Positions 2,037 to 20,730 of a stretch of DNA of 40,511 nucleotides are shown one piece after another; positions within the stretch are counted from its first letter, which is position 1; each line of letters opens with the position of its first letter. The notes below the pieces were generated by a model. The model was not told the DNA's origin. It did not search any database and worked only from the letters and a program-made list of their open reading frames with translations. The position numbers and the translations under genes were made by a program. The DNA is from Bdellovibrionales bacterium (GTDB lineage Bacteria > Bdellovibrionota > Bdellovibrionia > Bdellovibrionales > DASUEL01), in contig JBFWOZ010000026.1 in assembly GCA_050250255.1 (NCBI GenBank), positions 1 to 40,511 of the forward strand, in the 5' to 3' direction.

Positions 2037-2981
2037 TCAGTGTGACACTGATATTTCAACACCTAAATTGAATCGTTTTTGCTCACCTACTTCAAGTGAC
2101 TGAGTAGGGATAAAACGCAAATTAACATGGTTAATAGTTTTAGTAATAAGGCCATGGAAGTTGGGCATTTGAGAGTAGTCTTTTCTTTCATACTTCGTTG
2201 TATCTTGATCTATAGAATTTAAAAGAACCGTCTTTTGGATGCCAAGTACAGAATCTGATGAATTGAAGCCGTCTTCAAGAATCCTGTCTCTATAAGAGGT
2301 GTAACTATCTCTCATTTCTGCTCGCCGCTTTCGTTCAGAGTACTCTGCTTCGCTTTCATAAGCTTTTCTTACATGATCTCCAAGTGGCATATTCATCGAA
2401 ATATACAAATTACGTGATTTTAAAACGGAATTATTGAATGTTTGAATTTCGAGTTCGACATATTCAAGTCCTATGGCATGGACATGATATCTTGTCTTAA
2501 CACCCACGATTTCTTCGTTCGCAGATGACTTAATTAAGCTGATGATTTCATCAGCTATTCTGAGGCCTGAAATAGCTTTTAAAATTTCAATTGTATCTTG
2601 ACGATCAGGAGCGGGGTTCATTAAAGCCTTCTCGGCCCCCGCTACAATTTTTGAATACGATGAGAAATCTCGATCATAATGTTGATGAACTGTTTTGATA
2701 CAATTCGTGTCTGTCCCACACTCATTAATATGTCTGTTTTTCCAATTTGAAAGTTCGCTTAGTTTATTCTGAAACTCTTTAATTTCCTTAGTTTTTTCAA
2801 GTACAAATTCTCTCATTACGATTGCGTCTATTTCTTTTACCTTGCTCTGCGCTTCGCCCAAGTTCAATGGTTGAAATTTGGGGAGAATAAACATCCATTT
2901 TTGGAAACTCGTATCTCCATGTTTTAAAGCTAAAGCCGGTAATGAAGTACAAATCAAAAGCAATATTACTAATATACGCAT
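2037..2981 (-). CDS. Secreted hypothetical protein
   Basis: The ORF track starts at 3032, but ATG 2981 has a GAGG SD and a clean signal peptide (MRILVILLLICTSLPALA). AT-rich. Confidence 0.7.
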   Translation of the reverse strand: MRILVILLLICTSLPALALKHGDTSFQKWMFILPKFQPLNLGEAQSKVKEIDAIVMREFVLEKTKEIKEFQNKLSELSNWKNRHINECGTDTNCIKTVHQHYDRDFSSYSKIVAGAEKALMNPAPDRQDTIEILKAISGLRIADEIISLIKSSANEEIVGVKTRYHVHAIGLEYVELEIQTFNNSVLKSRNLYISMNMPLGDHVRKAYESEAEYSERKRRAEMRDSYTSYRDRILEDGFNSSDSVLGIQKTVLLNSIDQDTTKYERKDYSQMPNFHGLITKTINHVNLRFIPTQSLEVGEQKRFNLGVEISVSH

Positions 2982-3171
2982 AATAACCTCGTTTATGTGT
3001 GGTACAAAAAGCAAACCGAAAGCCATCCTCACCTCGAATATAACGTTGAAACTTGTAAAGACTGTGTAGTTTTATCAAATTGGGTGACCAAAATGGGAAT
3101 GTTATAGGTGCACCGAAACGATCGGAAAGGCGCTAAATATCGGAGCTCCGGCAAAGAGTAGACAACCAGAA

Positions 3172-4971
3172 TTATTCTGAAATTCTTAAGCCATGATCCC
3201 AAGCAGATTCATCAAAGTGCACGACATCTGGATGATTAAAAAGAAGCCCCTCAACCACTCCCAGACTCATCCAGCGGTGCGCGAATTCAAGCAACATCTG
3301 AAGCATGCGTCCCTTATCGCTCATGCCACCTTCTTTATGCTGAATCATCAACTCATTCACTTTCATGAAAGAGTGGCGTTCTTCAAAAAAGCGGTAAGCT
3401 TTTGCTTCGGCTCGACTGATCATCAAATGATGAATCTGATCTTCATTACGATAAAGTAGAAAATATTTTTTTTCTTGTTTTCCTAACGGCGAAGGTTTTC
3501 CCTTCGCAAAGCCCTTCCAGAGCTTTCCGATATCAAATTCCACTTCGACGATGCGAGAGTGACCATTAAAGTTCACTCCCACTTTTTCCAAAAGTGCGTC
3601 ATTGATTTCAGAAAGAGCCGAGGGTTCAACACTTCCGCGAAGTGGCGTGGTCTCAAGTTCAAGCCTCGCCCATTCAAACTTTGCCACATCAGCAAGAACT
3701 TCCATAGGTACGGGCAACCCTTGCAGTGATTGCGCCTCTCTTAAAAAGTCTTCTAAATGTTCACCCACACAAAGTGGATTTGCATTTTCTGGTGGGAACT
3801 CACTCAAATACTGTACAAGTAATCGATCAAATCCGGCTCCCGCACTGGTCACAAGAAGTGGAAACTGTTTTCTTAGGCAATTTCTTAACTGCACAAAGTA
3901 TTGTGTGTTGTAAATGGCAAGACCAACATCGGCAGTGAGGGGAGCTTGATCCACAAAATGTTTTAAAAGCTCTGGTGTCGCCGAACTCATCCGACTGACT
4001 CGATCTAACAATCGATCTTGATAATTTTCGTAGTCGATTTGATCTTGCGTTTTTTCAAGTTCCTTCATCGGCACAAAGTGAGGTCGCTGATAGTCTTCGT
4101 GAGAAGAGGCCATCATTGACGGCATGGATGGCAAAGGTGGCAACTGAAAACTCTTGAGCGATTGCTTTAGCTCTTGCACCACGGCCCATCTGGAAGTGAC
4201 ATCTAAAATCACATCCGCTCCGTTACGGAGTAACACTTGATCCGCAAATGCCGCAAACTCAGGCGCTACCGCATGTTCGCTAGAAGGAAGAAAAAATTCC
4301 CCCTGTTGCTGCTGGCCCTGCACCCGGATCAACCGAGGTTGAAGTTTTAAATAATGATTTGCGATCCCTTGAGGATCTTGGCTTAAATTTTTTGCTTTTG
4401 ACCAAATCGCCGTTAAATTGAGCGAGAACTCACAGCCGGTCACTCTCATGATTTCCGAGAAGAAATCCCACTCTTCAATCACACTCTGCCGAGACGCTAC
4501 CAAACTCATCGCATTTTCAATTGCAACACTGCGACCTAATAATTCCTGAAGCCTGAAAACGCGCTCGATGACATGCTCTAACACTTCTTCGTTAAATATA
4601 GGTGGAAGAGAAAGATAGGTTTCGTGATTTTTATGTTTCGACCAACTAACCTGCTCGACAAAATAGAGAGGATTGTAAGTTTTCAAAACCCCACGCAGAG
4701 ATTTTAAACTTACAAAATCAAGTTCATCCGTGCCCGCAAGATTCATCGTTTGGCTGCGAACAGCGAGGAACGTCGCCTTCTGAAGTTGCGCTAACCGCTC
4801 ACTCTCCTGCCAATGAGGCGCGAGTAACGAGCGAGCCGATAATTCCATCCAATGTGCTTTTGTTGCTTGGGCCATTTCAAGCGCTGGAGTCAGACTCTCA
4901 AGACCTATCGTGGTCAAGACGTCTGGTGACCAGGCTATTCCATGCCTTCGCGACACACTCCCTCTATCCAT
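3172..4971 (-). CDS. Fusion of a degenerate DUF692 (MNIO) domain and a DUF2063 (HvfC/BufC-type partner) domain
   Basis: N-half follows the MNIO scaffold (GTDELDF, LPPIFNEEVLEHVIERVFRLQELLGRSVAIEN, EWDFFSEIMRVTGC). C-half has the DUF2063 pattern (GLAIYNTQY..LRKQFP..F..L..YL..FPP...G..L.DFL...LADVAKFEWA). GGAGG SD. Confidence 0.85.
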   Translation of the reverse strand: MDRGSVSRRHGIAWSPDVLTTIGLESLTPALEMAQATKAHWMELSARSLLAPHWQESERLAQLQKATFLAVRSQTMNLAGTDELDFVSLKSLRGVLKTYNPLYFVEQVSWSKHKNHETYLSLPPIFNEEVLEHVIERVFRLQELLGRSVAIENAMSLVASRQSVIEEWDFFSEIMRVTGCEFSLNLTAIWSKAKNLSQDPQGIANHYLKLQPRLIRVQGQQQQGEFFLPSSEHAVAPEFAAFADQVLLRNGADVILDVTSRWAVVQELKQSLKSFQLPPLPSMPSMMASSHEDYQRPHFVPMKELEKTQDQIDYENYQDRLLDRVSRMSSATPELLKHFVDQAPLTADVGLAIYNTQYFVQLRNCLRKQFPLLVTSAGAGFDRLLVQYLSEFPPENANPLCVGEHLEDFLREAQSLQGLPVPMEVLADVAKFEWARLELETTPLRGSVEPSALSEINDALLEKVGVNFNGHSRIVEVEFDIGKLWKGFAKGKPSPLGKQEKKYFLLYRNEDQIHHLMISRAEAKAYRFFEERHSFMKVNELMIQHKEGGMSDKGRMLQMLLEFAHRWMSLGVVEGLLFNHPDVVHFDESAWDHGLRISE

Positions 4972-5060: not shown

Positions 5061-5801
5061 TTAAAACTCGTCGTCAGAGCCTGAACCGCCGCCTTCACTA
5101 CTCGTCACTCCACGAACTTCGTCGATGTAGCTACGAGCATCGTCTTCAAATTCACCCTCTTCACTGCTACCATCAATTTCTAATTCTTGAATTGCCGTGA
5201 TGAAGTCTTTCTCTGAATTGAGGTCTTTGCGAATCATTTCAAGGTACTTATCAGGATAACGAGCGGTTAACTCTTCGATGTAACGATCGAGTTTATCACC
5301 CGCCAAAATTTTCTTACGAAGTTGAATGCGTTTCCAGTGAGCCAAGTAGTGGTAACGACAATACCCGTCGCTTGTTGAAACTTCATCACACTCGGAAACT
5401 TTGCAATAGCGCATGCCATCGGCGTTCGTCAAAATGACTTCTTTTTCCACCACTTCCAAAACTGGTAAAGCTGGGGCTTTTGCTGCTTTCGGTGACGCCG
5501 TTTCCGCTTTGACTTTTTTCTCTACGACCTTCTTTTCGGGAGCCGCCACCTTAGGAGCTTTTGCAACCTTCGCGGCGGCTGGTGCCACCTTCGTAGACAG
5601 AGGCTTCGCGGCCTTAGGAGCTGGTTTTTTTGCGGCCGCTTTCGCAGGCATGAGCTTCTTCACAAGCTTTGCGGCTGCTTTAGCGACAACTTTAGCCGCT
5701 TTTTTTACGGGTTTAGGCGCAGCTACTTTTTTAGCCGGCTTTGCTTTAGGAGCTGGTTTCGAAGCCTTCGATTTGACTTTGGACTTTGCGTTTTTTGCCA
5801 T
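5061..5801 (-). CDS. Histone H1-like K/A/P-rich protein with C-terminal Cys3-His Zn motif and acidic tail
   Basis: Likely start MAKNAKSK at 5801; about 100 aa of KPAKKVAAPK-type low complexity; YCKVSECDEVSTSDGYCRYHY; D/E-rich end. Confidence 0.85.
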   Translation of the reverse strand: MAKNAKSKVKSKASKPAPKAKPAKKVAAPKPVKKAAKVVAKAAAKLVKKLMPAKAAAKKPAPKAAKPLSTKVAPAAAKVAKAPKVAAPEKKVVEKKVKAETASPKAAKAPALPVLEVVEKEVILTNADGMRYCKVSECDEVSTSDGYCRYHYLAHWKRIQLRKKILAGDKLDRYIEELTARYPDKYLEMIRKDLNSEKDFITAIQELEIDGSSEEGEFEDDARSYIDEVRGVTSSEGGGSGSDDEF

Positions 5802-5807
5802 GGGCTG

Positions 5808-5837
5808 ACTATAGAACTCATCCCAAAAAATAGTCAA
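5808..5837 (-). promoter_or_regulatory. Sigma70 promoter for a probably leaderless transcript
   Basis: TTGACT-N18-TATAGT-N6-ATG(5801), no SD. Confidence 0.6.
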
Positions 5838-5841
5838 CCAA

Positions 5842-6816
5842 TTACAGTGGACGTAATCGCAGCTCTCCCTCTTGAGAACGCACAAAAATAGAACTGACCT
5901 TGGACCCTGGAATCTGACCCTTCATAACTCGGTAATTTTCTTCACGCTCTACTTTCAAGGCAAAAGACGAGGCCACTTGCCCCTTCGCGCTTGCCACATC
6001 AACCCGAGCCCCCACGCCCTTTTGGAGGGCTAAATTGACTCTCGCATCTTCACTCCGGATACGCACATCAACAGCACCTTTCAATCGGCCTTCAATCACT
6101 CCAGCCGCCGTTTTTCCATGCACGGCCCCACCACTTAAGCTGAAATTGATTTCGCCTTTTTGATTTTCAAACTCGAAGTTCCCTTGAAGGTTATCCACAA
6201 AGTTTTTTCCCGAAACCGACTTCAAATTTAAATCTCCGACACAGTCGAGAACTTGCAAACGCCCTTCAAAATTTTCTACGCGAATGGGGCCCTCTACCTT
6301 TTTTAAATTCAAACGAGCCGTGTAGTTATCAACATCAATACGTCCTGCATGTCTTTGCACTTCAATATCACCGTCGTGAACATTTAAAGTCAGTCGCTCG
6401 CGACCGTCTTCAACCTTCACCTTTCCCTGTTGATGAGAAAGCTGCACCGTTTGTGTCCACCCCTTTACGGTCACATCGCCCTCTCCCCAAGCAATCACGA
6501 GCGGGAGGGATTGAGAGCGAATTTCAAAATCTTGACGAGGAATAGTGGCCGTGCGCCAATCTTGTTTGTTGCTAGGACCAACCACTCGAATCTCGAGCCA
6601 CCCATCAGTCACCGTCACTTGCGGCGCCCATATACCTTCTGCTGACTTTGCGAGATTTTTAAAACGCACCCGATCAGCTTTCGGGTCGGCAAACACCGTT
6701 AACCGGCCTTTATAACCTACGATTCTTAGCCCTTTGAGCTCAGAAACTAAAGGTTCCGTCTGAGCTTTGGATTGAAAGGAAAATAAAAACGCGAGCGTAA
6801 TAAGTGTGATTTTCAT
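5842..6816 (-). CDS. Secreted DUF4097-family beta-strand-repeat (adhesin-like) protein
   Basis: Signal peptide followed by many 'G.V.V....G.L.L....G' repeats. Confidence 0.75.
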   Translation of the reverse strand: MKITLITLAFLFSFQSKAQTEPLVSELKGLRIVGYKGRLTVFADPKADRVRFKNLAKSAEGIWAPQVTVTDGWLEIRVVGPSNKQDWRTATIPRQDFEIRSQSLPLVIAWGEGDVTVKGWTQTVQLSHQQGKVKVEDGRERLTLNVHDGDIEVQRHAGRIDVDNYTARLNLKKVEGPIRVENFEGRLQVLDCVGDLNLKSVSGKNFVDNLQGNFEFENQKGEINFSLSGGAVHGKTAAGVIEGRLKGAVDVRIRSEDARVNLALQKGVGARVDVASAKGQVASSFALKVEREENYRVMKGQIPGSKVSSIFVRSQEGELRLRPL

Positions 6817-10050: not shown

Positions 10051-10578
10051 ATGAGCCGGCTCCAACTTAAACTTTTTAGGCAAGATTCGACCTCTTTTGG
10101 TGGAAGTCTTTTTACGGGGAATGCTCGCGAGAAACGGCCCTTCTCACGTACATGTTTAACTCACGTAGTGATGCGGTCTCGTCATGCTGTTGGTAGCTGG
10201 TCGATGCTTCAGCCTAAAAATAAAAAGTATATTGATTCCAAAGTTCGATACTTTGCAAAGAAGTTTTATGTGAATCTCAAGCGTTTTGAGAATGTGGGAA
10301 ATCATCTCCACATCGTAATTCAAGCTCCTACGAGAGAAGCACAGGCGAATTTTCTTCGAACTATCAGTGCTCTTATTAGTCGACAAGTGATGGGAGCCCA
10401 TAAAGGTCGTCCTACAAAGATTCAAAAATTTTGGGATGCAAAGCCTTTTACGAAACTTGTGAAATGGGCGGTTCAGTATCCTAGGCTCATGAAGTACATG
10501 GCTTATAATTCTCTTGAAGCGATTGGGTTTTCTAAACAAGGTGCGAAAGAATATCTTGCGTTGTTCTCGACTTCCTAG
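10051..10578 (+). CDS. Y1 HUH transposase, REP-associated tyrosine transposase (RAYT)-like
   Basis: HVVMR, ENVGNHLHIVI (HUH), FW motif and catalytic Tyr helix KYMAYN; no tnpB beside it. Confidence 0.8.
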   Translation: MSRLQLKLFRQDSTSFGGSLFTGNAREKRPFSRTCLTHVVMRSRHAVGSWSMLQPKNKKYIDSKVRYFAKKFYVNLKRFENVGNHLHIVIQAPTREAQANFLRTISALISRQVMGAHKGRPTKIQKFWDAKPFTKLVKWAVQYPRLMKYMAYNSLEAIGFSKQGAKEYLALFSTS

Positions 10579-14867: not shown

Positions 14868-16547
14868 TTACGACTTTCCTTTAACCGAAGGTGCGCTACC
14901 ACTACGAGCTAAATCAGCCTGCAATCTTTCTATTTTCTTCTGCTGCATTTCGTGCTGATGATCTGATTTTTCTTTTAATTGTGAAATTTGATTTTCAAAC
15001 TGTAACTCTTGAGCCTTTAGCTTCAAATCCCAATGATGTTCGGCCATTTTTAGTCTTTCATGAGCCGTCTCACGCTCTTTCACAATGTCGGCCTTCCCTC
15101 GCAACGTCAGTTCGGCAATTTGGTTTTCATAACGCTGACTCGTCTCCGCAAGCTTCTTTCCATTCTTAACATCGGCTTCCTTCATGACCTTTTCCATGTT
15201 GGATATAGCCTCACCCTGTTCTCTAAGTCCTTTATTCTTTACGTTAGAGACTTGTTCACTATAATTACGCTTCATCTGCTGAACAAGGCTTTTGAAGCGC
15301 TCTTCCATTTCGCGTTTTTCCATTTGAAAACGACTTTTAAGCTTTTCTGCATGCAACTTACCCTGATTGTCTAATTGAGCCGTCCGGGAATCAAAGTCCA
15401 CTTGCAATTGACGAGACTGTTCATCTTTGACCATTTCGAGACTGTTGATTTTACCTCGATAAAATGCTGCTTGATCACCCATAAGATCGGAATTCTTCTT
15501 GGACATAGTTCCAACAGCTTCTTGATTCCTCTCGTTGGAATCAGCAACAGCTTTCAATCGCTGCTCTTCCATCACCTGCTGTCGATTTTTCACCGCTTCC
15601 ATCAGCGCTTCGCGCTCTCGCTTCGCGATATTTCTTATCGCAACCGTATCTTCAATATTTGAACCCTTAGCTTTTGCGAGATCACCCTCAAGACGCTGAA
15701 TTTGATTTAAAGTGCGCCGATCTGAAATCTGTTTCAGATTTGCCAAAGACTTAGCACTTTTCTCTTCGTTTTTCGCAAAGTTCTCGTGCATTTCTTCTCT
15801 CATATCTGTCATTGAGGAATCAAAGCCTTCTTTTTGCGCTTTTGTACGATTGGCGTAGGTCTCCTGAAGAGTTTTTAAATTTGTGTCAAAGCGATCCGTA
15901 AGACTTCGTCTTTGCATTTCTTTCTGCTCTTTGAGCTCACTAATTTGCGCGTCTTTTTGTCTTCGCTGAAGCTCTTTTGCTCGCTGAATCTCCGTGAGCT
16001 CTTTTCTACGCTCCGACTCAGCGTGCGTTCTTTCATTTGAATTTTTCTCAACCAGCTGATTTTTTTCCCTGACAAGATCTGTTTCAACTTTATCTCTCAG
16101 ACGGTGTGTCTCATTTGAAAAATCACTTTCAAGTTCCTTAATATAACCGTCATAGTTGTCACGCAGGGTGCGCATCTGTTCTTCCTTCGAGCCTTCTACG
16201 TGAGTGATCTGTTCTTTTGTACCTTTTCTATGTTCCGCAAGCGCCCGGTCATGCTCTGCCGCCGATTTGCGCGACTGCGAACGATGAACACGACCTACTT
16301 CATCAATTTCTTTTTGATAGTCGCGATCTTTTTTCGTCAAGATGCGATTTGATTCGTTGCGAACTGCAGCCAGAGAATCTGAGTGTTTTTTGCTTTGTGC
16401 TTTTAATTTTTCTTCATTCTCTTTTTGGAGACGCTTCAGCTGGGCTTCATTAGCCCTTTTCTGCTCTGTTTCGCGATTACGATACTCTTCCGCTTGACGC
16501 TGAACTGTATCGCCATTCGAATTATTCTTAACACCATCGACCGCCAT
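14868..16547 (-). CDS. Long coiled-coil hypothetical protein
   Basis: 559 aa, E/K/Q/R-rich and almost Pro-free; AGGAGG SD. Confidence 0.8.
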   Translation of the reverse strand: MAVDGVKNNSNGDTVQRQAEEYRNRETEQKRANEAQLKRLQKENEEKLKAQSKKHSDSLAAVRNESNRILTKKDRDYQKEIDEVGRVHRSQSRKSAAEHDRALAEHRKGTKEQITHVEGSKEEQMRTLRDNYDGYIKELESDFSNETHRLRDKVETDLVREKNQLVEKNSNERTHAESERRKELTEIQRAKELQRRQKDAQISELKEQKEMQRRSLTDRFDTNLKTLQETYANRTKAQKEGFDSSMTDMREEMHENFAKNEEKSAKSLANLKQISDRRTLNQIQRLEGDLAKAKGSNIEDTVAIRNIAKREREALMEAVKNRQQVMEEQRLKAVADSNERNQEAVGTMSKKNSDLMGDQAAFYRGKINSLEMVKDEQSRQLQVDFDSRTAQLDNQGKLHAEKLKSRFQMEKREMEERFKSLVQQMKRNYSEQVSNVKNKGLREQGEAISNMEKVMKEADVKNGKKLAETSQRYENQIAELTLRGKADIVKERETAHERLKMAEHHWDLKLKAQELQFENQISQLKEKSDHQHEMQQKKIERLQADLARSGSAPSVKGKS

Positions 16548-16708
16548 CTCTCTCCTCCTTGAGAAAGTTCACGAGAAAAAATGACTTTTCCTTAATTATT
16601 ACATTATCATGAACGCCTATTCCTTCTGAGTATTAATCGCAAAAGCCAAGACATTAGGCTGCATTCGATAATTTCTAATGATTTTTGTTTCAGGTCACTG
16701 GACGAGAC

Positions 16709-16746
16709 GGGATCAAAGTCTATGCGAAACATAAGACTATGGTCCC
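16709..16746 (-). terminator. Imperfect hairpin just after the large lipoprotein gene
   Basis: GGGATCA..AGTCTATG-CGAAA-CATAAGACT..TGGTCCC, a few nt past the stop; no clear U tract. Confidence 0.35.
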
Positions 16747-16752
16747 CAAAGA

Positions 16753-19404
16753 TTATTGAATTTGGCCTAAAAAAGTTCGTAATAAAAACGAAATTTGACC
16801 ATCACTATAATCCCTACCCGGCAAGGCTTTCAGATCAGAAAGAGCGCGTAACGATAAAATAAAAAGCCGTGGATCAGGTTTTTTAAAGCTGCTCGCGTAG
16901 TCATCGCTCATGACCGCAGAATAAAATCCTTGTTGCTCATCCCAAAAATGCTGACTCAAGGAGAAATAGATTTCATAGGCTCGAGCTTTAAACTCTGACA
17001 TTTTTAAATTCTTTTCAATGGCCGTAAAGGCACGGATCGTCTCTAATTGATCTTCGAGATGTAGGCTTTTCGTAATAATTTTGTTTTCTTTGAGAGAATA
17101 TACCGACGACATAGAGCCATCAGGGCGTTGCATTTGACGAACAAGGAAATTCCCCATCATGAACGTCAATAGTTTCACTTGACTTCGTGCTTCGATAATT
17201 TTCGACATTTTATCTTTAACAACCAGCGATCGACTCTTCTCAATCCCCTCAGTCGCTTCTAAAAATTTTGTCATGGCTAATATAAACCGACTGATATCAG
17301 CACTCTTCATCTCATCGCCTAAGCCATTTTGAGTACGATCAACGTAACCAGCCATGAGAGCTTGTTCTTTTTTTGCTTCATCAAGAGATTCTGAAGAAAT
17401 CCATTTTAAATCTTTTGTGAGAAAGAAGACTCCTGAGCGAGGTCTTTTCAAATTTTCTAAAATGATGCTCGAAACCCCTAAACAGTATTCAAAGATCTTT
17501 TCTTTAGGGAAGAGCGGCTCAAACTCGAGATGAGGAGGCAGATCCGGGATGAGGTGTCCAAGAACAAACTGTCCCATCTTGATGTCGAAAGTGCTACCTG
17601 TCCAATCTCGAAAAAACTCCATAAGTCCTGAAAAGCCTGAGAGAAGTTCGGCCTGTCCTCTTACACTAACAAAGAAAGGATCGTCCCGATTGTCGCTTCG
17701 ACTCATTTCATTAACACTCTTAAGAGAAATATAATCTGGCACAACGAAATATTCATTACTTCCAAATTGGGTTTTGATGTCCATGATTTTGGAATATGGA
17801 GAAGGCTCATTGATAGCCACATGGAATGAAGGAAAAAGGTTGTCGTCGATACGTTTAAACCCCCCAACCGCCGGCATTTTATTTAACACTTCGAGAACCA
17901 ACCGATAATAGGCGTCGGAAGAATAACTAACTGACTCATACTCCGCCACTTTTTGGAGACGCTTTGAAGCCAAAGCCATACTTGAACCGATGGAAGAGCT
18001 ACTTGTAAGGTGTGGTGAAACTCGTGAATCTGGAATCAATAAATAATTTCCGCCTTCTTTCACGCCAAAAACATAACGGTCCTTTTCAAAACCATTGATT
18101 GTTTTTTTCTCACCATAGATTTCTTTTTTACCCCAATTCACAGATAGGTCAGCAAAAAAGTCTCGATAAGTTTTCTCTCGAATAGTCTGCACATTCAACT
18201 CTTTGGCCTTTACCGTTTGGATAAAGCGGGATTCCATCATTTGAGGCAAACGTACCAATTGAGCTTTCAATTGTTTTTCAAAAGATTGAAGAACAAAGGA
18301 GTTAATCATCGGCAAGAGCTCGTCACGAAGTTTAGCCACACCATAGTCTTCGAGTTTTGAAGTGATTTTCCAATAAGGAATATATGTCCACAGGTTGGTC
18401 CAGGAACCGTTTTTTAAATCTACAATGTAGGCTTCATCCTTATCTTTTAGGTGTTCATAAAGATCAGGACTCACCTTTTGGAAGTACTGTTGTCGCTGCT
18501 CGGGCCTTAACATAAGCCAGAGATTAAGAATCACTGCCAAGCCCTGCTTGCCGTTCGACATTTGAGCTATATCTCTCTCAAGACGTGACGCCATCTCTAA
18601 ATCGGTACGAATTTGCGAAATAGTTTGTGTGTCGAGAGGAAGAGACTCAATTGACTTAATATATGTTAAATTCTTGCTCAAAGGTTGGCTGATAGAAACC
18701 TGCGAAATCTCCGCACCAAAACGGTCCACCATTGGAAAATATTTTTCATCGAGCTCCGCTTGAAATGCTTTTACAACCTCAATCGAAGCGCCTCTTAATT
18801 TTAGAAGAGAGGCGATTTGAGCAAGAAAAGATCTCAGTTGAGTTCCCACTCCTTGAAGACTTACACTCGCAAAAGCCTCACTGAGCAGCGCTGACTCTTT
18901 TAAAACTTGACTAATGATCGGATAGCTTTGTTGTAATCCCGCGATTTTTCCATCCAGGATGCCTAATAAAATTGGTTTTTTTTCTCCTAAAGCTACGTCG
19001 AGATACAAACTATACTCAGGTAGAACCTGCATGGAGTTGTCAGGATTTCCGTAAAGGGTTTGAACAAGGAAATGACCTAGCTTTCTCGCTGGTTCATGAC
19101 CTTCTCGATCTCCTAACTCCATCAATTCTGTGATGAGGTTAAAAACCTGGTGAGCATCAACGACTCTTCGATAATTCACTTGTAACCACATCGAAGAAGT
19201 AGCCTGCTGTTCAAGAATTTTATCTTGATTCAATTTTTTGTCTGACCCTTGTGGCTCAATCTCAATGTAAGTTTGTGGGACTGATGGTGACTGGGGTGAT
19301 TGGGAGCAACCCGCTAGAGCAAAAAGGCACGCAAGAAGAACAACGGCCATCGCTCCTCTTTTAATTCCCTTACTATAAAACTGAACGTGCAACATAACTT
19401 TCAA
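16753..19404 (-). CDS. Large hypothetical lipoprotein
   Basis: Lipobox LAGC. Alternative start at 19350 with a GAGGAG SD. C-terminal QRPDGS / HFWDEQQGFY segments recall alpha/alpha-toroid folds. Confidence 0.75.
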   Translation of the reverse strand: MKVMLHVQFYSKGIKRGAMAVVLLACLFALAGCSQSPQSPSVPQTYIEIEPQGSDKKLNQDKILEQQATSSMWLQVNYRRVVDAHQVFNLITELMELGDREGHEPARKLGHFLVQTLYGNPDNSMQVLPEYSLYLDVALGEKKPILLGILDGKIAGLQQSYPIISQVLKESALLSEAFASVSLQGVGTQLRSFLAQIASLLKLRGASIEVVKAFQAELDEKYFPMVDRFGAEISQVSISQPLSKNLTYIKSIESLPLDTQTISQIRTDLEMASRLERDIAQMSNGKQGLAVILNLWLMLRPEQRQQYFQKVSPDLYEHLKDKDEAYIVDLKNGSWTNLWTYIPYWKITSKLEDYGVAKLRDELLPMINSFVLQSFEKQLKAQLVRLPQMMESRFIQTVKAKELNVQTIREKTYRDFFADLSVNWGKKEIYGEKKTINGFEKDRYVFGVKEGGNYLLIPDSRVSPHLTSSSSIGSSMALASKRLQKVAEYESVSYSSDAYYRLVLEVLNKMPAVGGFKRIDDNLFPSFHVAINEPSPYSKIMDIKTQFGSNEYFVVPDYISLKSVNEMSRSDNRDDPFFVSVRGQAELLSGFSGLMEFFRDWTGSTFDIKMGQFVLGHLIPDLPPHLEFEPLFPKEKIFEYCLGVSSIILENLKRPRSGVFFLTKDLKWISSESLDEAKKEQALMAGYVDRTQNGLGDEMKSADISRFILAMTKFLEATEGIEKSRSLVVKDKMSKIIEARSQVKLLTFMMGNFLVRQMQRPDGSMSSVYSLKENKIITKSLHLEDQLETIRAFTAIEKNLKMSEFKARAYEIYFSLSQHFWDEQQGFYSAVMSDDYASSFKKPDPRLFILSLRALSDLKALPGRDYSDGQISFLLRTFLGQIQ

Positions 19405-19413
19405 TCCCCAGGA

Positions 19414-20730
19414 TTAAAAAAACATCTTCATTGAAACTTCATGGATCTGCGCTCTTTCAATATTTCGTCCAGACATGATTTCTGAAAACTCGTAGCCAAT
19501 ACCATAAGGAACCGCATCTCTTTTTTGGAGGTAACCTTTTGCGGTTGAATATTCAATTGTGGCCATCGCTTTTTGCCACTCTTGAGATGTGTTACGAGAA
19601 AGAAGGTAGTACTCATAATCTCTCGAACCTGAATACTTATCCTCTTGCTTTTGGCCCCACTCCCAACCTGCACCAAGCGCAATATAATCAGAAAAACTAT
19701 GACGAGCCGTTAAACCGCCCGTTATAGAATCACCAAGGTCACGATGAAGAGCTTCCTTGCGATCGGCGTCTGGCAGAATATCATCCGCACTTGCAGGAAC
19801 ACGTTTTTCGGCTTGATCAGGGAGTCGTGCAAAGTATCCTGCATTCACACCCATGGTTGTATAATCATTGAACTGATATTCTTGAATCACCGTACCGCCG
19901 AGACCTGTCTGATGTTGGCTCGTGATATCTGTTAAATCATCCGCATCATCCTTAGGACCTGTTGGCAAAACAACGCTGGTTTTAAATACAGAAGTCCAAC
20001 GTGAGTTTTTATAAAATTGGTAGAGACTCACAAGATGGATATCACCTAAAAATGTGTTCTTTCGGGATTCGACTCTCTTATACCCTTTTGCAGCGAACGT
20101 ATCTTGTGCCGCAAGCGCCAAATTCTGATTGAGTGTTTCTAAACCACTTTTTAATTCTGTCGACGCCTCGGCAACCGCTTGAAGTTCGTTTTGAATGAAC
20201 GGAATATTGGAGCTCACCTGTTGCATACGAATATCAAGAGCATATTGGATGATAGGAATCGCAAAACCTACTGTCCACTCATCAGTAATCCCACGTGCGA
20301 ATACAGGACACACATATTTAATATCGGGATGAATTTCTACCTTGAGTTGTCCAAGGTGAAGCTTGTTACCAAGCTCGGAACGACCTGCCTGATTGAGAGC
20401 ATGAACGAGCTTTTGCAATTCCTCTTTTTTCTCAGGTTTTAAAAACCTCATGAGCTGAGTGAGATCAATATCCTGAGTATAAAAATCGCCTTGATTAGCC
20501 AAGACACCATTGGGTCCAAATTTTTGTGAAGCTTGAGAAACTTGAGCTGTACGAAGAGTTGCGTAATTCACACCTTTCGGCAGGACTTGCGCACTTTCAA
20601 TAGCCATAGAAAATGGGGGTACAAGGATGTTAAGACAGAGAAATGCAATGATTGAACTTCTTAACAAATACGACACTTTTTTAGTCCCTCGAATGGCTGA
20701 ATTTTGCCACCGGGGCCTACATTTTCTCAA
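19414..20730 (-). CDS. Putative outer-membrane beta-barrel transporter (SphA/MetA-pathway-like)
   Basis: Signal peptide ending SMA-IES; LGDIHL...VVLPTG motif; amphipathic strands; C-terminal Phe. The true start is probably downstream of 20730. Confidence 0.65.
   Translation of the reverse strand: MRKCRPRWQNSAIRGTKKVSYLLRSSIIAFLCLNILVPPFSMAIESAQVLPKGVNYATLRTAQVSQASQKFGPNGVLANQGDFYTQDIDLTQLMRFLKPEKKEELQKLVHALNQAGRSELGNKLHLGQLKVEIHPDIKYVCPVFARGITDEWTVGFAIPIIQYALDIRMQQVSSNIPFIQNELQAVAEASTELKSGLETLNQNLALAAQDTFAAKGYKRVESRKNTFLGDIHLVSLYQFYKNSRWTSVFKTSVVLPTGPKDDADDLTDITSQHQTGLGGTVIQEYQFNDYTTMGVNAGYFARLPDQAEKRVPASADDILPDADRKEALHRDLGDSITGGLTARHSFSDYIALGAGWEWGQKQEDKYSGSRDYEYYLLSRNTSQEWQKAMATIEYSTAKGYLQKRDAVPYGIGYEFSEIMSGRNIERAQIHEVSMKMFF

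Follow-up and report, generated by a model that had tools for sequence, protein, structure and literature searches.

A fused MNIO-DUF2063 protein lacking nearly all iron-site residues, behind a core gene of a Bdellovibrionales bacterium

The locus and its genes

The window, i.e. the whole stretch of 40,511 nucleotides from a Bdellovibrionales bacterium that was analysed here, carries near its beginning a gene whose product, P0001, joins an MNIO-type barrel and a DUF2063-RRE partner in one chain. The gene and its surroundings show the following features:

5061..5885 (-): lysine/alanine-rich core gene, product with a cysteine-containing acidic C-terminal domain; upstream of P0001, locus marker, also precedes the relative P0057 in the metagenome locus L047
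4982..4987 (-): Shine-Dalgarno sequence AGGAGG, 10 nt 5' of the P0001 ATG
3172..4971 (-): pseudo-MNIO and DUF2063-RRE fusion, P0001; uninterrupted ORF of 599 aa
4138..4923 (-): MNIO-type TIM barrel, residues 17-278; 1/10 metal-site motif residues retained
4417..4767 (-): barrel core with high conservation, residues 69-185; contains loop 152-167, the equivalent of TglH L3
4324..4326 (-): Arg216 codon, replacing the Fe2 His ligand
3232..4032 (-): partner half (DUF2063 and RRE-type), residues 314-580; most strongly conserved part of the chain, bearing an FxHRW motif and a basic stretch specific to the clade

The first-pass annotation had described an intact frame with a Shine-Dalgarno sequence and a probable promoter of its own. 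The first two are both present. The promoter could not be upheld, as it consists of a single 9/12 match (5023-4994), nine sites being found against 8.3 ± 3.5 expected by chance, and as the syntenic relative in L047 has a gap of just 34 nt. In GC and GC3 content (0.453/0.425) the gene resembles core genes (relA 0.446/0.422), unlike the two AT-richer ORFs on its 3' side (537-1691 and 2037-3032, minus strand, GC 0.41 and 0.36). One of these two has a PQQ_2 repeat and the other no Pfam match; both are missing from this position in L047, and thus are probably later insertions. Elsewhere, the window contains a short IS200/Y1-transposase-like gene (10051-10578, plus strand) with a similar copy at C21:1340-1867, and three consecutive large ORFs without Pfam match (14868-20730, minus strand), encoding a charged, probably coiled-coil protein of 559 aa and proteins of 883 and 438 aa.

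The core gene is unannotated and without Pfam match; its product ends in a Cys-x4-Cys ... Cys-x2-His arrangement and an acidic tail. It is present in 370 of the 390 genomes of the class, and the site behind it varies between genomes, with many different genes inserted there. As a general link, the core gene product as substrate or fixed partner of P0001 was rejected, since none of 49 other genomes examined from the 370 (two of them with less than 400 nt of downstream DNA) has an MNIO behind it. The absence of a precursor or DoxX gene, noted in the first pass, was confirmed: the gap on the upstream side measures 89 nt and that on the downstream side about 140 nt. A six-Cys BufA profile run over the genome matched solely the C43 and C77 loci, with none at the P0001 locus. 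A Cys-containing, Sec-exported precursor was found neither in the window nor upstream in L047, classes other than BufA being judged by eye. What had been put forward as a candidate for an undescribed system is a single gene at an insertion-prone site, and no multi-gene system.

In L047 the genes follow the same order as here (pyruvate kinase, cNMP protein, scoB, scoA, thiolase, DUF4097, core gene, pseudo-MNIO); a gap of 34 nt separates the core gene from P0057 behind it, and no precursor is present. P0001 and P0057 share 25% identity, whereas the neighbouring genes are 45-84% identical; the two are the most divergent pair of their clade, yet occupy the same locus. The deepest split of the clade (98/82) separates P0001 from P0057, which makes an ancestral locus probable. 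No orthologue of P0001 was detected among the 389 other genomes of the class, the best match (E 4.9e-23) being an intact enzyme, and a clade profile found none in a 401-genome sample of the phylum, where the best other match is an intact fusion. In G001, a genome of the same family that is 77% complete, the gene is apparently absent from the matching site, to which a weak anchor match points. A pattern scan gave no clade member in genome contigs and one, that of L047, in metagenome contigs. The pseudo-MNIO gene is thus rare and fast-evolving.

Loss of the metal site

Both domains were matched by Pfam profiles, in line with the first-pass assignment: PF05114 on residues 34-252 (E 2.5e-30, 106 bits against a cut-off of 25) and PF09836 on residues 334-410 (E 7.8e-9). 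The best NCBIfam matches are BufB, HvfB and HvfC, all sub-threshold. The BufB equivalog reaches 100.6 bits (cut-off 310), and the HvfC equivalog, covering residues 350-573, reaches 32.7 (cut-off 142). The sole match to the sequence of a solved structure is 3bww (E 1.8e-10). In bufferin clusters a DUF2063-RRE partner directly follows the MNIO; in P0001 it does so by in-frame fusion.

Ten positions were scored, nine being Fe ligands named for MbnB (PMC9060507) or for HvfB (bioRxiv 10.64898/2026.07.17.739211), and the tenth the conserved Asp of the EWD motif. In P0001 they read R72, Q107, E152, N185, A188, R216, P229, S231, D257 and T259. Aligned to intact MNIOs, all six motif substitutions listed in the first pass sit where they had been placed, and E152 is the sole identity (1/10). 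In a motif alignment, the Fe1 and Fe2 ligands of MbnB (H54, H90, E133, D163, H192, E239) correspond to R72, Q107, E152, N185, R216 and D257, with one of six identical; D257 still supplies a carboxylate at the position of the EWD Glu. The third-site residues of HvfB (N175, D242, H244) are replaced by A188, P229 and S231. No His is left at any of the ten positions, an alternative metal site being judged here from sequence alone. In MbnB, single substitutions of H54, H90, E133, H192 or E239 abolish the EPR signal of the active cluster (PMC9060507).

Contigs from a second sample of the same study are identical to the window over 4216-4579 and 4631-4809, with 0 differences and no variant inside the pseudo-MNIO gene. 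As this covers 8/10 motif codons, the substitutions are not assembly errors. Together with the ligand loss common to the clade described below, the match rules out both an assembly error and a recent pseudogene. By the ligand and precursor tests P0001 thus appears to lie outside the active MNIOs and the bufferin class.

Relatives and descent

An exhaustive protein search returned 1553 representatives at E <= 0.001. The best 150 of these were aligned with P0001 and P0003 (152 proteins), and a length of at least 470 aa was taken as a proxy for fusion. Among the matches listed, 108 relatives were long: 101 keep 10/10 residues, two keep eight or nine, and five keep only one or two. P0154 and P0155, also with 1-2/10, came from a further search in which the C-terminal half of P0004 was the query. 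The resulting ligand-poor fused clade (P0001, P0002, P0003, P0004, P0057, P0154, P0155) has at least seven members, as a word-indexed protein search missed P0004 and P0057 even with both included in the alignment used as query.

Trees of the partner half, which contains no ligand column, place five members on one branch in a quick tree of 101 rows (SH-aLRT 96), and all seven on one branch (100/98) in a tree of 42 rows made up of selected nearer intact fusions and paralogues from the same genome, in which the bootstrap is unsettled. Intact fusions surround the clade, and the BufC of the P0001 genome branches elsewhere, which rules out a recent duplicate of that genome's BufB/BufC. Ligand loss, whose sharing the first pass had asked to check, is therefore common to the clade members (1-2/10 in 7/7), and catalytic residues are lost across one orthologous clade (100/98), as is expected of a pseudoenzyme. 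Arg216 is found in 7/7 clade members against 0/96 intact fusions.

The fusion itself, presented earlier as a special feature, turned out to be ordinary: 101 of the 108 long relatives among the matches listed are intact fusions, and such proteins also form ESM Atlas clusters, so that the fusion is ruled out as the novelty. Natural intact fusions (P0005, P0007, P0008; ESM Atlas clusters of 54-137 members) have the same domain layout and are, by the tree, direct ancestors of the P0001 clade. They differ in that no ligand is lost and in that Cys precursors adjoin the fused loci examined, lying upstream in 5/5. As a laboratory-made HvfBC fusion is active (bioRxiv 10.64898/2026.07.17.739211), fusion offers no explanation for the ligand loss. 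Searches of the open-access literature yielded neither ligand-less MNIOs nor natural MNIO-DUF2063 fusions, and neither appears in the main text of the family survey as far as this was covered (PMC12452194).

The maturases BufB/BufC and HvfB/HvfC consist of an MNIO (PF05114) and a PME-type 1 DUF2063-RRE protein (PMC11626156, PMC12452194). P0001 has the same two-part architecture in the same order and is nested among the intact natural fusions of this kind. It differs from the maturases in its single chain, its eroding barrel ends, the 1/10 metal-site residues, scores far below the equivalog cut-offs, and a locus without precursor, DoxX or sigma factor.

Stand-alone MNIOs with partial loss were also seen: P0067 (5/10), P0085 (3/10), L022:1423-2292 (5/10) and L041:1440-2291 (7/10). 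These part-degenerate proteins suggest that iron-site decay may be recurrent in the MNIO family, and the fused clade is, judging from the sequences, a further independent loss.

Mosaic conservation

Conservation within the clade is uneven along the chain. In three disjoint pairs, the core (residues 69-185) is identical at 81/117, 82/117 and 79/117 positions (68-70%) without any indel, and the partner half at 159/233, 158/229 and 161/228 (68-71%); the two do not differ. The barrel ends (17-68 and 186-262) reach 55/124, 28/70 and 24/64 (38-44%) in the same pairs and are lower in each of them (Fisher p about 1e-4, with segment borders chosen after viewing the alignment); in a fourth, overlapping pair they are 32% identical. 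Intact enzymes are nearly even over the same barrel segments (0.34, 0.47, 0.47, 0.43). Pairs of intact fusions vary mainly in the partner half (mean 0.14-0.25), their barrel being far more conserved, whereas in the clade core and partner are equal. In the subclade of P0003, P0004, P0154 and P0155 the final third of the barrel is shorter by 14-50 residues, P0154 keeping 39/89 residues of the stretch 186-274. A column-wise test comparing positions conserved and variable in intact enzymes was significant in 4/5 pairs for the partner half and in 1/5 for the barrel, which would fit a relaxed barrel.

Across the seven members 44 columns are invariant, including E43, E106, N153 and R216 in the barrel and K483, R520, E522, F563, H565, R566, W567 and D592 in the C-terminal part. 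In the 5/5 members tested the stretch 470-540 has a net charge of +4 to +7; the value for 96 intact fusions is -2.1 ± 3.6, eight of them reaching +4. P0001 as a whole is acidic. Selection was read from protein patterns, as DNA covers two members that share 25% identity; conservation at this level suggests purifying selection on part of the protein. The catalytic constraint is apparently gone, and a constraint on the core and the partner half apparently remains, a mosaic that would fit an old pseudoenzyme retained for binding.

The AlphaFold model of P0001, built on 101 aligned fusions, shows a complete barrel (pLDDT 87.4, pTM 0.87), but since 96 of the 101 rows are intact enzymes it may overstate barrel integrity; a single-sequence model reached pLDDT 34. 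The modelled barrel superposes on MbnB (7fc0, 7dz9, 7tcr; Z 23.8, rmsd 2.6, 251 aligned), TglH (8hi7; Z 23.1, rmsd 2.9, 262 aligned) and the H. somnus DUF692 protein (3bww; Z 20.6, rmsd 2.9, 235 aligned). P0001 differs from these three in its fused partner and in having Arg, Gln, Arg, Pro and Ser as the equivalents of His54, His90, His192, Asp208 and His210. Residues 351-578 superpose on NGO1945 (3dee), the PF09836 prototype (Z 14.6, rmsd 4.5, 194 aligned). Here the differences are the position behind an apparently dead barrel, the clade-specific basic C-terminal stretch, the FxHRW motif and a W-D tail. In the TglHI complex loop L3 of TglH inserts into TglI and docks the partner (PMC10880893); its equivalent in P0001 (152-167) falls inside the retained core, and that of the partner-docking loop L1 (about 47-56) in a poorly conserved segment.

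The model agrees with the earlier claim that the DUF692 fold is kept (pLDDT 87, Z 23.8 to MbnB). The further claim, that ligands were lost selectively while the fold stayed, holds in its second part; the loss is not confined to ligands, as both barrel ends are eroding and one subclade shows deletions that reach about 50 residues.

Bufferin clusters and a second ligand-less MNIO in the same genome

MNIO/precursor loci do occur elsewhere in the genome, as two similar six-Cys bufferin clusters that together have four precursors and are both divided between contig ends:

C43:22798-26459 with C37:27023-28018: bufferin cluster 1; its BufB has an in-frame TAG
C77:6086-7600 with C85:1-2134: bufferin cluster 2; ligands intact

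Each contains YceI, two tandem six-Cys precursors, BufB, BufC, a peroxiredoxin-like gene and an upstream ECF sigma/anti-sigma pair. The earlier suggestion of a decoy subunit for an active MNIO found no footing, as nothing ties P0001 to one, and the genome's BufC and the partner half of P0001 are only remotely related. Complex prediction for residues 15-585 of P0001 (7-row alignment) with the C43 BufA precursor (8-row) gave no usable answer (score 0.01, mark 0.32).

The same genome holds a second ligand-less MNIO (locus L005, C21:4593-6079, minus strand), of 253 aa and with 2/10 residues, which overlaps a DUF2063-like partner gene of 242 aa; no precursor was seen. It has no orthologue among the 389 other genomes of the class, where eight weak matches show 23-28% identity. 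Its partner falls outside the P0001 clade and has a very long branch, and thus the two proteins probably represent independent losses.

Possible functions

On the likeliest reading, P0001 would be a non-catalytic binding protein, in which the DUF2063-RRE half binds, the half-barrel holds the shape, and Arg216 fills the vacated site; we regard the chances of this reading as about evenly balanced. It would descend from an ordinary fused bufferin-type maturase (MNIO and DUF2063-RRE) whose iron ligands were lost once, in the clade ancestor. The DUF2063-RRE half would be the working part, gripping a peptide stretch or a protein. The central barrel segment (69-185) would be kept as a docking surface that stabilises the partner half, and Arg216, with the nearby carboxylates E43 and E106, would plug the empty metal site. 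As residues specific to the clade are fixed in the C-terminal domain, the client is probably not the ancestral bufferin precursor. Directly supported are the ligand loss, the origin from intact fusions, the lack of a linked precursor in two loci, and the mosaic conservation. The first-pass idea of a repurposed non-catalytic protein therefore stands as far as ligand loss, fold and sharing across the clade are concerned, and the proposed binding and client role are our inference. It is possible, though we find it rather doubtful, that MNIO-partner maturases have repeatedly been exapted as iron-free binders, and that here a half-barrel and a re-tuned RRE serve a new client, such as a protein tail or nucleic acid.

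The two bufferin clusters and their four precursors (C43+C37, C77+C85) raise the question of an accessory acting in trans, which would bind six-Cys BufA as holdase, decoy or spare partner and tune the output of the copper chelator. Many bufferin precursors are unlinked to an MNIO gene (PMC12452194), the five intact fused loci examined all adjoin Cys-containing precursor genes, and the signal peptide of BufA1 is dispensable for modification, so that recognition involves the core peptide (PMC11626156), which a dead maturase could in principle still hold. But a BufC is already present in each cluster, the pseudo-partner stands far from the C85 BufC in the tree, and the surroundings of P0001 are housekeeping genes without a sigma/anti-sigma pair; co-occurrence with a bufferin cluster was checked in one of the seven members. 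Such an accessory role seems unlikely to us. We would likewise be surprised by a dispensable relic in slow decay, whose precursor was lost, whose enzyme died, and whose frame is kept open by weak selection, such as that against misfolding. Patchy occurrence, fast divergence, the barrel-end deletions, the long P0057 branch and other part-degenerate MNIOs (P0067 5/10, P0085 3/10, L022 5/10, the C21 copy 2/10) would all be expected of a relic. Seven open full-length frames at 25-70% identity would not, nor would the 44 invariant columns and the same mosaic in three disjoint pairs, nor a partner half that is variable in intact pairs (mean 0.14-0.25) and here as conserved as the barrel core.

The positive charge of residues 470-540 in the 5/5 members tested (+4 to +7, against -2.1 ± 3.6 in the 96 intact fusions) and the invariant K483, R520, H565 and R566 could point to a nucleic-acid-binding regulator, with the winged-helix-like C-terminal domain re-tuned for DNA or RNA and the dead barrel as scaffold or ligand sensor. 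NGO1945, the DUF2063 prototype, was indeed first proposed to bind DNA (PMC2954202), but was later reassigned as a partner of an MNIO (PMC12452194). Moreover, P0001 is acidic overall, an acidic peptide could be bound by a basic patch just as well, and the five charge-tested members form one clade, so that the charge shift counts as a single event; we therefore deem a regulator improbable. A remodelled pocket built from E43, E106, N153 and R216, binding a single metal ion or a small anionic molecule and catalysing or sensing otherwise, is very improbable. These four invariant polar residues do lie on barrel strands, the barrel of P0001 is modelled complete, and epimerases and endonuclease IV share the fold. 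Yet His is left at none of the sites, other pocket positions vary freely among members (E152 to R or T), and the subclade of P0003, P0004, P0154 and P0155 has lost 14-50 residues from the last third of the barrel.

Implications

Genome mining uses MNIO genes as markers of new peptide chemistry. As a match to PF05114 and PF09836 can apparently be catalytically dead yet conserved, such matches need a check of the ligands. The impact of the finding is moderate, since the clade is small, patchy and without known function. The mosaic conservation also marks a part of the barrel (69-185) that matters apart from catalysis. If the reading of repeated exaptation is true, the exapted clade would be a RiPP-derived adaptor or regulator, a role undescribed for the family in the portion of the literature searched. 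If a new client is bound, this would be a case of RiPP recognition machinery moving into general cell biology.
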